Shown here one piece after another: positions 40,701-58,800 of a stretch of DNA of 64,000 nt. The DNA is taken from assembly GCA_039621445.1 (NCBI GenBank), contig CP154954.1:22580954-22644953 (forward strand), given 5' to 3'. Position 1 is the first letter of the stretch. Every line of letters starts with the position of its first letter. The translations under genes and the position numbers were made by a program. This stretch comes from Euglena gracilis (Eukaryota). The notes beneath the pieces were generated by a model. The model worked only from the letters and a program-made list of their open reading frames with translations. It was not told where the DNA came from and did not search any database.

Positions 40701-42340
40701 CAGCCCCGTGCCCGCAGCAGCAGCAGCAGCGGCAAGCAGCACGCCGGCCCTACCAACACCAACCACAAGCGCCACAAGCGCCACACCGCCACCGAGCGCC
40801 ACCCCCACGCAGGAAGCACAAAGCACCACAGCCACCGAGGAGGCACCGGCAAGAAGCGACCCCATGGCCACAGACCGACTCCTGGGCAACAAGCGCCCAG
40901 TGTCGGTGGTGGTGGAGGAGGCGGCCACACCACAGCCCACCGAAGGGGACGACGCCTCGCAGGCAACCCAACCAAGCCAGCGCAAGAAGAGGCTGTACAC
41001 GCGCTTGGCCGAGTGGCCGGCGGAGTGGCGGGAGCAGTACGAGCGGTTCAAGGCCACGCACAAAGCAAGCGACCGCCGCGAGATGTGGCAGGGGTGGGAC
41101 CAAAGCCTCCAAGACCAAGTGTGGGCAGCCGTCGCCGACAAGCGGAGGGACGAGATCCGCCGATGGAAGGCGATGGAGAACGAAGGCCCAACCCAAGCAG
41201 AAGACCAAGCGAGCAGCACGCGAGAACAGAGGCGGAGGTCCCACACCGGAGCGGAAGAATGACTGGCAGGAAGGCCAGCGCATCGGGGAGGCGAAGCAGC
41301 CAGGCCCAGAAGAGGAAGGGTCGGCAGCGGACCCCCCCGAGGGGCAAGCGGGGAGCCCAAAGAATCACCCGCAACCGGCCTGGGGCGGCTCTCCAGGGGT
41401 ACCTGCCGATCACCGGCAGGGCGTGTCCCGGCACGCCGTCAATCGGGACGTCGAAGCAGTACCCACCAGAACCATGACGCAAAAAATCACAGGCATGCCA
41501 GGCAATGACGGCCTGCCCGGCGCAGAGGACCTCTGCCCCGGGTGGCAGGCGGGGCGCCAGCCTAAGAACCCGCAACCGACCTGGGGCGGATCTCCAGGGG
41601 TACCTGCCAATCACTGGCAGGGCGTGGCCCGACACGCCGTCAAGCGGGACGAAGGAGCAGAAGAACCGTGCCCCAGAAGCAGAAGCCAAGACCAGCACGA
41701 CTGGAAGAAAGGGGCACGGATCGGGGAAGCAAAGAACCCCGGACCACCCCAAAGAGGGTACCAACAGCCCAACCCAAAAGGGGGGGCCCAGCGAGGAGGA
41801 CAACAAACAGGAAAAGGACAGACACAGCCCAGGAAAGGAGGCAAGGGTGGCAAAGGAAACGTCACCCCACAAGGAAGCCGGCAGGGCCAACCCCAAGGAG
41901 AGGGCTGGCAAACAGCACAAAGCACCGGCCGAAAACGCCTCCAAAAGCGCCTCCAAGGGCTCCAACGGGCGCTGCAAGAAATGCAGCAAGAGCTCGACCA
42001 ATGGCGGCAGAATCCGCCCCCGCAGCAGCAGCAGCAACGACCGGACCTAAGGGACGACAACCCCTGGGCCCCCCTGCAGCCACAGCAAAAACGCCGGGGG
42101 CGGAAGAGATCCATTGGGTTTGAACACCCAAGCCGCCAAGCGAGCAGGCAGCCGCCGCCAGAGCAACGAGGAGGACGCGGAGGACGGGGAGGACCGGAGG
42201 CCAAGGACGGGCGACGAAAGGGAAGGGGAGCCCAGCGACAGACACGGGCAGCCACGGGTGACATGCCGGGAGGGTGGGGCCGTGAAAGGTGGCCCACGGC
42301 GGGGGGGGCGAGGGGGGTGGGGGGAGGGGGGGGGACGCCA
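37769..42340 (+). mobile_element. Penelope-like element family A, copy 1 (5'-truncated inside the RT N-terminal region, frameshifted)
   Basis: Start matches copy 3 at ~61227. RT motifs TYDFTTMY, KGVPMGLECSPQLANLY and RYIDD in ORF 38265-41477. Confidence 0.92.
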
Positions 42341-55874: not shown

Positions 55875-58800
55875 GACAGGAGCTGGTGACCGTGGCGGTG
55901 CAGAACAACTACACCTGCAACGGCGGAAGGGTCCGGCGGCAGATCCGGGGCATGCCCATGGGCCTCCCCCCGGCCCCGCAGCTGGCCAATCTGGCCTGCT
56001 ACCCCGTGGAGCGCGACCACATGTACGCCCTCCCTCCCCAGCTCCGGTCCTCCGCCGTGTCCCGATACATTGACGACATCGTCCACCCCACCACCATGCC
56101 CCTCCCCTCGGCAGCCGAGTACGGTATGGATTACAAGACCACCGGCTCCGGCGAATCCGTGGTGTGCCTGGGCGTCCGGGTGTACATCCAGTGCCACACC
56201 AACGGGGACCGCGTAGTCCACACCACCGTCCATGACCGAGAGGAGGAGTACCCCCACCACATCGTCCGCTACCCTCTGGCCACCACCACCGCCCCCACCG
56301 AGCAGCTGGGCGGGGTCATCATGGGCCGCCTGGAGTTTGCCCGTATGGCCTGCAGCCACATGGGGGACTTCAAGCAGTCCGTGGCCAACGTCTTCCGCAA
56401 CGCCATCTGGCGGGGGTACTCCCGTCGCCTGGTGCAGTCGGTGTGGAGCCGCTTCCTCTTCCAGCGCTGGCACGCCACCGACATCCGCGTCCGTGAGCTC
56501 CGCAGCTGGTTTTCCAAGGTGTGGAAGTGGCTCCACTCCAGCCCCCACCGCATGCCCCCAGCACCATGGGCCACAGCCCTCCCCCTCGATGAGGCCCATG
56601 CCCCCTCCCAAGCCGACTTCCTCTCCGTCTTCGGCCAACCCGCACCCCTCCTCCCCGGGGGCATCGACGACCTGCTGGCCGAGATGACGCCGCCCCCTTC
56701 CCCCTCCGCCTCCCAGCCCTCCGACATGGACGTGATGATCATCGACCGGGAGGCCCACGTGCGCCACGGCAAGCAGAAGGCCCCGAGGGGAGCGTCCCGA
56801 TCCGTCCACTGGCCAGGGCTCAGAGAGGGGGACGCCCCAGAGGAGAGGTGCGCCCAACCCGTGAGCAGCAGGGGCAAGGACCCGGGGGTGATGCCGCCAA
56901 GGATCCCGCCCCCGGCGAGCCCGGGCGAGCCTCTGCCAAGCAGTCAAGAGGAGGGGGACGCCCCAAACAGCCGCAGCACCAGGCCGGCCCACACCGGGGC
57001 GGGGTTTACGCCGGGCAGTGAACCGGGGGTGACGCCGCCAAGGTTCCCGCCCCCGGGGAGCCCGGGCGGGCCTGAGGACAGCAAGGGGGACGCCCCGAGC
57101 CACGGACTGGCCCACACCGTGACGGGGTTTACGTCGGGCAGTGAACTGGGGGTGACGCCGTCAAGGATCTCAGCCCCAGGGAGCCCGGGCGGGTCCGTGA
57201 TCGTGCTGCCAGGACCGGCCTCAGAGCCGAGGGGGGACGCCCCAAGCGACAGGCTGGCCCACACCGGAGCGGGGTTTACGCTGGGCGGTGAACCGGGGGT
57301 GACGCCGCCAAGGATCCCTCCCCCGGGGAGCCCGGGCGGGCCTGAGAGTTGCCAGCCCATGGCCATGGAGACGGAGACGGACGCCCTCGAGGGGGTTGCA
57401 GCGCAGCCAAGCACCGCCTCCCAATCCCCCAGTGCCCCAACGGCCCCCACAGCCTCCCAAGGCCCCCCTCTCTCCAACCCAGACTCCGCCTCCCCAACCC
57501 CATGCCTCCCCCCACCCACCCGAGAGGTCCTCCAGGAGCGGGTCGTCATCGTCGAGAGGCAGGTCCCCGTTCCCGTGCGGGAGCCCGTCTTCGTGGATCG
57601 GGTCATCGAGCGGGTCGTCCCGGTCCCTGTGCAGGTGCCCGTGGAGGTCCGGGTTCCCATGCCCGTCCCCGTCCCCGTGGAGGTCCGGGTACCCATCCCC
57701 ATCTATCTCCCTCCCTCCGCGCCACAAGCCCCCTCCATCGTGCAGAATGTGCATCTCAACACACTCACCATCGGCCCCTCCTCCCCCTCGTCCTCCCTGG
57801 CCCTCCTCCAAGATCTCCCCATTCCCGCCATCGAGGCCCCAAACCGCCCACTCCTCATCGCTCCCCCCCCGCCACCCAGCGACGCCACCGACGACGACAC
57901 CTCTTCCCAAGGCCCCACGAAGAAGAGGAAGTTCACGTCGTTGAGCGAGTGGCCTGCCGAGTGGCGAGCCAAGTACGAGGAGTGGAAGGCGGTGCTGAAG
58001 GACCCACGACAAGTAGGACGAGGACAGACCATGTACGAATCATGGGACCCGGACCTGCAGAACCAGGTCTGGGCCTCGTGCGGCCCCCAGCGGCGAAGCA
58101 TCATCCAAGAATGGCAAGAAGCCGCAGCAGCCCAGAACGTCGAGCGCCCCGCGGATCTCGAGCGCCAGACGCACGACTGGCATGAAGGTGCCAGGATCGG
58201 GGAGGCCGACCACCCCGGTCCAAGGCGCCACCCCCACGGCCCCCACCAGGGCCACCAACCGTCCGGGAGCCACGTCCCCGGAGCGAGACCGAGCCAAGTC
58301 CGGGCGGGTGGCAGGCAGCGTGGTGCCTGTGCCCCGCCAACCCCGTCCGCAGGGGAGCAAGCGAAGCGGGGTTTGCCCCGGCCCCAAGCCCCTTGGCGAC
58401 CTAATAGGGAATCGACCCGTGGGCACCGCCCTGGGGAATCACAAATTTCAGCAGCCATGAGATCTACAAGACCCTCTCGCCCTGGGAGTGCGCAGGGCAA
58501 CCAACCCCGAGAAGAAGCAAGAGGGAGAAGACTAGAAGGCGACACCTGGACGCCGGTGCAGAGCAGGCGAGGGGCGGCGCTGCACAAGGAGATCAAGAGG
58601 ATGGCGGACAGCATCTCCGCCCTCAGCGAGGAGCTGAAGAAGCTGCAAGAAAAATGCCAAGCTCAACGCCACTTTCGGGGGGAGTCGCAGCCCCCAACCA
58701 CATCGAGACCATCGCGGAGAGGAGAGAGAGAGAGAGAGCGAGGGAGGCAAGGGCCGGCCCCCCTCCGATCCCCTCTCATCCCAACCCGTGGGATCCCCTG

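Follow-up and report, generated by a model that had tools for sequence, protein, structure and literature searches.

A tryptophan-containing motif ending in N/H-P-G-P in the run-on reading frame of Chlamys-type Penelope-like elements of Euglena gracilis: a candidate StopGo recoding peptide

Two families of Penelope-like retroelements, here called A and B, lie in a 64,000-nucleotide stretch of the Euglena gracilis genome (NCBI GenBank assembly GCA_039621445.1, contig CP154954.1, positions 22,580,954 to 22,644,953 of the forward strand; hereafter the window, numbered from its first letter). Behind the reverse transcriptase (RT), both families carry a 21-residue motif with the consensus E-x-x-[S/T]-H-[D/N]-W-x-E-G-x-R-[I/M]-G-E-A-x-[N/H]-P-G-P, whose occurrence is real and far beyond chance. 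We propose, on the basis of sequence comparison and with slightly better than even chances, that this motif is a StopGo-type recoding peptide of a new sequence class that punctuates the run-on frame of Chlamys-type elements. Once the ribosome has reached the end of the motif, its last ~20 residues (E ... H-[D/N]-W-x-E-G-x-R-[I/M]-G-E-A-x-[N/H]-P-G) would lie inside the exit tunnel, the ester of peptidyl-tRNA(Gly) would be hydrolysed instead of being joined to the incoming Pro, and translation would resume from that Pro. The endonuclease (EN) and the RT, together with a tryptophan-rich (W-rich) domain, would thereby be released at N-P-G, and a separate coiled-coil/basic product, which in some relatives would include a CCCH zinc finger, would begin at the Pro, analogous to ORF1p or Gag. 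When two motifs are present, the module between them would be freed as well.

A six-frame regular-expression scan of the window recovered the motif at the same sites as an earlier note on this DNA, which had described it as 2A/StopGo-like. D-W-x-x-G-x-R-I-G-E matched at 41261, 41699, 46535, 46976 and 58175, and I-G-E-A-x-x-P-G-P at 41282-41308, 41720-41746, 46997-47023 and 58196-58222. All sites, like all other features given here, are on the + strand, and they share a single frame index; the tally is four copies with intact spacing and one decayed copy. A degenerate DNA pattern of the motif occurs four times in the window (58% G+C, zero N) against 0.00 expected from 100 dinucleotide-preserving shuffles. 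The family B motif (58172-58222; H-D-W ... H-P-G-P) is in frame with the RT tail and the W-rich domain. Family A bears the motif twice, as the earlier note had it. Its motif 2 (41696-41746; N-P-G-P) is intact, lies between an inter-motif module and a coiled coil, and recurs with identical DNA in the next tandem copy (46973-47023); these two sites are tandem copies of family A and hence not independent, and the comparisons that count as independent are those of the two family A motifs, of family B and of the outside homologues. Motif 1 of the first copy (41261-41308) is present at its site but is a full instance only in part, because its His has been removed by a 24-nt deletion, which is absent from the other genomic copies seen at the ends of sequencing-run contigs, and Q replaces N/H before P-G-P; it is probably decaying. 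Motif 1 of the second copy (46532-46582) is degenerate, as previously noted, with the upstream half kept and P-G-P lost. In neither family A copy of the window does motif 1 share the frame of the W-rich domain upstream.

Relatives were searched with phmmer (E <= 1e-3) among 1.84 billion representative proteins, using as query 115 residues of family B that span the W-rich segment and the motif. There were 27 matches, 26 of which were judged true; the other, P0029, is a long repetitive protein whose match is limited to query residues 2-42, and it was judged spurious. Ten relatives that were looked up all came from European Nucleotide Archive (ENA) or Joint Genome Institute (JGI) assemblies, from short contigs with uninformative names. 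The motif is present in 22 of the 26 true relatives, all metagenomic protein clusters; three of the other four end ahead of its place and P0024 keeps a remnant only. When a regular expression fixed the upstream half alone (W-x-x-G-x-[RHK]-x-G-E), the 24 instances that it found in these 22 relatives all carried A-x-[N/H]-P-G-P at the same spacing. Considering relatives and window copies together, P-G-P is present in 28/28 instances and is preceded by N in 22, by H in five and by Q in one, which is the decaying family A motif 1. Several proteins contain two motifs (P0013/P0031, P0022/P0034/P0037 and P0028/P0040/P0042), as does family A of the window.

The conservation takes the shape of a sharply bounded island. 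With the 28 instances aligned on the terminal Pro, information amounts to ~1 bit per column outside the island and 3.3 bits at -20; most of the columns -17 through 0 have 2.6-4.3 bits, and +1 has 1.2 bits. Eight columns have to be discounted since they were fixed by the extraction regular expression. The conservation does not extend past the terminal Pro. MAFFT, run unforced on 15 whole sequences, returns 11 invariant columns, of which nine are the W, G, R, G, E, A, P, G and P of the motif, its only invariant block, and the remaining two are single prolines. In the 2A numbering of FMDV (foot-and-mouth disease virus), marked p below, the motif reads W5, E7, G8, R10, I11, G12, E13, A14, x15, N/H16, P17, G18, P19. 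p12 is G in every instance, and the fifth residue counted back from the terminal Pro is variable (S/K/D/T/E/A/Q). The upstream Trp, which the earlier note had taken to be fixed, is found in 27/28 instances, at position 15 from the terminal Pro. The lack of a canonical D(V/I)E was likewise borne out, p13 and p14 being E and A in 28/28 instances and also invariant in the unforced alignment. Other searches were less productive: word-index protein searches limited to the motif region gave one and three matches, the ESM Atlas yielded no usable match, and the degenerate DNA pattern was met at two loci in metagenome contigs (L001 and L002) and at none in viral contigs. Because this pattern demands exact matches, the small number of loci is not evidence of rarity.

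The surroundings of the motif, which had been regarded as otherwise unalignable, turned out to be conserved on both sides. Upstream, behind the RT tail, lies a W-rich domain of ~65 residues that is conserved in 26/26 true relatives. In family B it occupies 57941-58144, directly upstream of the motif; in family A its two copies are at 40972-41259, where the frame is off by one relative to motif 1, and at 46222-46512. It corresponds to no Pfam family and to no fold in the PDB (Foldseek, E <= 0.001). The regular spacing of its tryptophans suggests that the predicted domain is a helical one that binds nucleic acid. Downstream, the terminal Pro is followed by 10-25 residues variable in length and sequence, then by a module of ~90 residues with several conserved short motifs, including a second P-G-P-containing motif and a conserved Met, and then by a coiled coil. 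In family B, linker and module together (module X, 58223-58564, predicted to be disordered) precede a coiled-coil helix at 58565-58669 (predicted local distance difference test, pLDDT, 91-98). The ~90-residue module was found in P0004, P0008, P0015, P0016, P0025, P0026, P0037, P0042 and P0044, and in some families it is bracketed by two motifs. Family-A-like relatives contain a different conserved module between their two motifs; in the window it lies at 41309-41695, and it is conserved in P0009, P0013, P0018, P0019 and P0043. Behind motif 2 of family A, a coiled-coil-like segment recognised by eye (41927-42010) is followed by conserved short motifs and G/K/R repeats. These repeats take the place of the CCCH-type zinc finger and long G/K repeats that stand behind the second motif in P0031, P0034 and P0037. 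From the CCCH finger, the G/K repeats and the G/K/R repeats, the product downstream of the motif looks like a nucleic-acid-binding protein of ORF1p or Gag type. The motif is thus reused at the borders of modules and ahead of a coiled coil.

Structure prediction places the motif in a linker. In a first AlphaFold2 model (115 residues, 25-sequence alignment), four helices at residues 15-77, with pLDDT about 90, make up the W-rich domain, and residues 87-103, the motif, are modelled as coil (pLDDT 52-62). In a second model (220 residues, 15 sequences), coil (pLDDT about 50-57) is predicted for the motif and for ~110 residues behind it, and a helix at residues 156-190 (pLDDT 91-98) is the coiled coil. 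As far as prediction goes, the motif would therefore sit in a disordered linker and not in a fold.

Where does a protein end in these elements? The family B frame runs from the RT to the 3' end of the element without a stop codon, through V-P-V repeats, the W-rich segment, the motif, a basic P/G-rich stretch and the coiled coil. Family A follows this order too, with two motifs and in copies that are decayed in the window, and the frame at locus L002 is likewise open to the 3' end. P0044, a single predicted protein of 1151 residues on a 9.3-kb contig, joins the two ends of such a frame: in alignments, its residues 62-463 correspond to the tail behind the RT in family B, from V-P-V repeats through W-rich domain, motif and module to the coiled coil (E 1e-58), and its residues 714-1135 to the segment ahead of the endonuclease in family A, to GIY-YIG and to CxC (E 2e-56). 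P0045 has the motif and, in frame, residues 616-672 that correspond, at 65% identity (E 1e-19), to the segment with which the family A body begins after the junction between tandem units. In the family A copy that starts at 59087, the G/K/R-repeat frame crosses the junction (near 59880) into the endonuclease, and the endonuclease frame (open reading frame, ORF, 59298-63998) has no ATG ahead of GIY-YIG. Taken together, P0044, P0045, the 59087 copy and the open frames of family B and L002 indicate at the sequence level that, in tandem arrangements and in those with a pseudo-long terminal repeat (pseudo-LTR), the coding frame is continuous from unit to unit, the motif standing behind one enzyme and ahead of the next. 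It is conceivable, at somewhat short of even chances, that the Chlamys frame is an endless one that closes on itself over head-to-tail copies, and that a third class of StopGo peptide (Trp at position 15, I/M-G-E-A-x-[N/H]-P-G-P) is its only punctuation. Any transcript started in a pseudo-LTR would then yield a unit-length EN-RT and a coiled-coil/basic, ORF1p-like partner, plus a small module wherever there are two sites.

How does the motif compare with known 2A peptides? StopGo peptides of class A share the core (D/G/C/N)(V/I)ExNPGP (Li et al. 2026, PMC12846837). Class B, reported from dsRNA viruses, ticks and dinoflagellates, follows WXXX(L/V)XXEG(I/V)EX(N/H)PGP (bioRxiv 10.64898/2026.09.24.754024), with a Trp at position 16 whose register is critical and with N and H alternating before P-G-P (Rao et al. 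2025, Cell Rep, PMC12338488). The Chlamys motif has in common with class B the invariant upstream Trp, the Gly eight residues from the end, acidic residues around this Gly, a similar total length and N/H before P-G-P, found at position 4 in 27/28 instances in the same alternation. It differs in that its Trp is at position 15 rather than 16, one residue nearer to the skipped bond, that its centre is I/M-G-E-A and not E-G-(I/V)-E, that it has no Pro at position 5, and that it has an additional invariant H, E-G and R; the Trp register, central residues and Pro 5 that characterise class B are accordingly absent. With class A it shares the N-P-G-P end, G at p12 and a similar spectrum of residues at the variable p15, but it has neither (V/I) at p13 nor E at p14, two core mismatches, and its upstream part is not Leu-rich. 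Class A 2A-like sequences of apurinic/apyrimidinic endonuclease (APE)-type non-LTR elements (L1Tc, Ingi, CR1, L2; Odon et al. 2013, PMC3708506; PMC12846837) resemble it further in belonging to a retroelement polyprotein, in being disordered and in preceding a coiled-coil/basic product, although the Chlamys host is a retroelement with GIY-YIG and a telomerase-like RT and not an APE-type long interspersed nuclear element (LINE). By these defining features the motif belongs to neither class A nor class B, even though it may work like them. The 2A/StopGo-like description in the earlier note is supported in part: the terminal signature, the 21-residue island, the N/H alternation, the selection on the peptide, the disordered linker and the reuse at module borders fit such a peptide better than the note was able to show, but the defining core of both published classes is missing.

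Several published observations are in line with a recoding function. 2A peptides are 18-22 residues long (PMC12338488), and StopGo has been functional in all eukaryotic systems tested. Among functional StopGo sites, upstream motifs with a W come in two registers, offset by one residue; G and D are equally common at p12; H at p16, though rare, was functional when tested; and the rare core variants tested had activities of about 90% or more (PMC12846837). In non-LTR retrotransposons, 2A-like peptides are usually N-terminal and stand ahead of the ORF1p coiled coil.

Other observations weigh against it. The octapeptide G-E-A-x-N-P-G-P is off (D/G/C/N)(V/I)ExNPGP at two positions, E at p13 and A at p14. 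In the cryo-electron microscopy (cryo-EM) structure E14 stacks on 28S rRNA (Li et al. 2026, PMC12846837), and in deep mutational scans of P2A and F2A H was the sole substitution of E14 to reach the activity threshold and I the sole one accepted at V13 (bioRxiv 10.64898/2026.09.24.754024). In class B, no activity was left once the Trp had been displaced by one residue (Rao et al. 2025, PMC12338488). The second P-G-P-containing motif of the ~90-residue module has no N/H, and in the closest relatives of family B it is not even P-G-P; conserved linear motifs with other reasons behind them thus occur in this region, and such a motif need not mean recoding. As for the run-on frame, P0044 and P0045 are products of gene callers from short contigs and were read as protein only, and the continuity of the family A frame is a composite pieced from copies, because those in the window are decayed.

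The main rival to StopGo recoding is a short linear motif of the ordinary kind, which would lie in a disordered linker and serve for docking or processing, for instance by a host factor, a protease or the import machinery; the ribosome would translate it without a break, and its likeness to 2A would be convergent or coincidental. We consider this possible though doubtful. It agrees with the presence in the same disordered region of several other conserved short motifs, the second P-G-P one included, with the failure of the motif to match the (V/I)-E core common to the published 2A classes, and with the intolerance of p13 and p14 to change in the mutational scans available. Binding motifs, however, are rarely invariant over 17-21 residues with an edge sharp to one residue, and over the last four residues the match to StopGo sites is exact, down to the N/H alternative. 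In addition, no protease domain was found in the elements with Pfam, and the recurrence at module borders and before a coiled coil is that of 2A-like sequences in ORF1p-like proteins.

An improbable explanation is that the motif is a stalling peptide in the tunnel, or a 'reduction' peptide, that lowers the output of the downstream part or of the whole protein and does not release two products. A non-canonical core could indeed pause the ribosome without hydrolysis, and in a 2026 preprint most of the retrotransposon 2A-like peptides tested cut protein abundance (70% of the ORF1p and 59% of the ORF2p cases). Stalling would nevertheless leave unexplained both the stop-free frame behind the RT and the reuse of the motif on either side of a module.

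Very improbable indeed is conservation at the level of nucleic acid (promoter, splice signal or RNA structure in the pseudo-LTR) or of a strand or turn in a folded domain: the motif does lie within a 3' region that doubles as pseudo-LTR and in which the transcription start and a 5'-untranslated region (5'-UTR) intron of Chlamys-3_cRei are located (PMC8557442), but synonymous codons are used at nearly every position across loci of differing G+C, Rfam has no matches, and the motif is coil with pLDDT 50-62 in two AlphaFold2 models. The codon comparison comprised both motifs of family A, that of family B, L001 and L002, of which L001 is visibly AT-richer, and it implies that selection acts on the peptide and not on the nucleotides; together with the absence of Rfam matches at gathering score over the whole window, it led us to reject conservation at the RNA level. 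The earlier note had named membership in a folded domain as an outcome that would speak against its reading, and we rejected this possibility because both models return coil at the motif.

Why would a StopGo-like motif of this kind have gone unnoticed? One reason is that published screens, which allow at most one core mismatch or require the class B pattern, would miss it. In its main text, the paper that defines Chlamys elements (Craig et al. 2021, MBE, PMC8557442) contains neither 'PGP' nor a mention of skipping. In the available text of the 2A literature that we searched (PMC12338488, PMC12846837 and bioRxiv 10.64898/2026.09.24.754024 among it; supplementary tables outside the search), the word 'Penelope' does not appear. 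Within the same limits, the wider literature searched never brings 'Penelope-like' together with '2A-like', '2A peptide' or 'NPGP' and contains none of six literal variants of the last nine residues of the motif; the statement that 2A-like sequences have not been described from Penelope-like elements holds to this extent. One preprint mentions, with no further detail in its available text, class A peptides in 'telomerase-like' reverse-transcribing contigs (bioRxiv 10.64898/2026.09.24.754024), some of which could be Penelope-like elements with canonical motifs.

If active, the motif would be a third sequence solution to StopGo recoding. It would mean that bond skipping by the ribosome does not require the (V/I)-E core, so far held to be essential, and would put to the test the structural model of a nascent chain clamped by E14 and D12. 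2A-like recoding would also extend to Penelope-like elements, a third major group of retroelements after LINE-like and, in one report, LTR elements, and to hosts of the green lineage. For the elements themselves, activity would explain how defined proteins arise from frames with no obvious start before the endonuclease or stop after the RT, and would add an ORF1p-like second product to Penelope-like elements; it may, moreover, give a short algae-native tool peptide. If inactive, the motif would still stand out as the best-conserved part of a protein tail that is common to many Chlamys families and has not been described before.

As regards the host elements, self-comparison of the window gave their layout. 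The family B element (55877-59062) is 5'-truncated inside the RT, its frame being open from there to the 3' end, and is flanked by (AG)n at 55752-55876 and (GA)n at 59063-59086. Family A forms a head-to-tail array (37772-47934) between (GA)n runs, in which one copy is 5'-truncated, a second lacks ~580 bp internally and a third is partial. A further family A locus (59087-64000) consists of a partial upstream copy, or pseudo-LTR, joined near 59880 to a body with GIY-YIG at about 60205-60305, then CxC and RT, that runs off the window. An older family-A-like copy (48707-50538; 84-88% identity) has both motif sites decayed. ORF 59298-63998 encodes, in this order, GIY-YIG, a C-P-C linker and RT; in Pfam, RVT_1 scores 32.3 bits, above its cut-off, and GIY-YIG is weak (E 0.028, below cut-off). 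With GIY-YIG N-terminal to the RT and a CxC linker, these elements fit the Chlamys type of Penelope-like elements, the N-terminal position of the endonuclease being what defines the Naiad/Chlamys clade (Craig et al. 2021, PMC8557442). They share with the Chlamys clade, besides the GIY-YIG before the RT and the CxC linker, the pseudo-LTR, head-to-tail copies, 5' truncation, microsatellite targets and the absence of a hammerhead ribozyme, there being no Rfam match in the window. The same paper notes long tails and N-terminal extensions for several families, and its targets are (CA)n and (C)n, as opposed to (GA)n in the window. The W-rich domain, the module behind the motif and the frame that crosses the junction are not described in its main text, to which the comparison refers, its supplementary consensus sequences lying outside.

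Some further features of the locus may be recorded. The (GA)n/(AG)n microsatellites that host both families are at 37567-37771, 47929-47955, 55752-55876 and 59063-59086, and a CA-type run flanks locus L001. The middle copy of the family A array is without, at 43441-43453, ~580 bp that are present in the 59087 copy (61049-61630), an endonuclease-RT stretch that includes CxC; this copy is therefore defective. In contigs from two sequencing runs (X1 and X3), 40734 is joined to 41183, which skips 448 nt including the W-rich domain, with ends AG..CG and a contig depth ~4x that of neighbouring contigs. By frame arithmetic this joint brings the RT-tail frame in frame with motif 1; with 22 letters on its shorter side, in low-complexity sequence, it may be an artefact or a deletion subfamily and was not relied on. 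Canonical splice joints were absent from the contigs of four runs, which are Logan contigs that behave like DNA assemblies and are uninformative on expression. The (AG)n flank of family B is immediately preceded by a satellite (51405-55762) of at least eight units with a period of about 523-525 bp, whose unit has 163 bp (99%) in common with 55600-55762. Other tandem repeats of the window are a 163/329-bp array at 5895-6835, (CATA)n with ~124 units at 10023-10518 and (ATGGT)n with ~133 units at 27267-27928.

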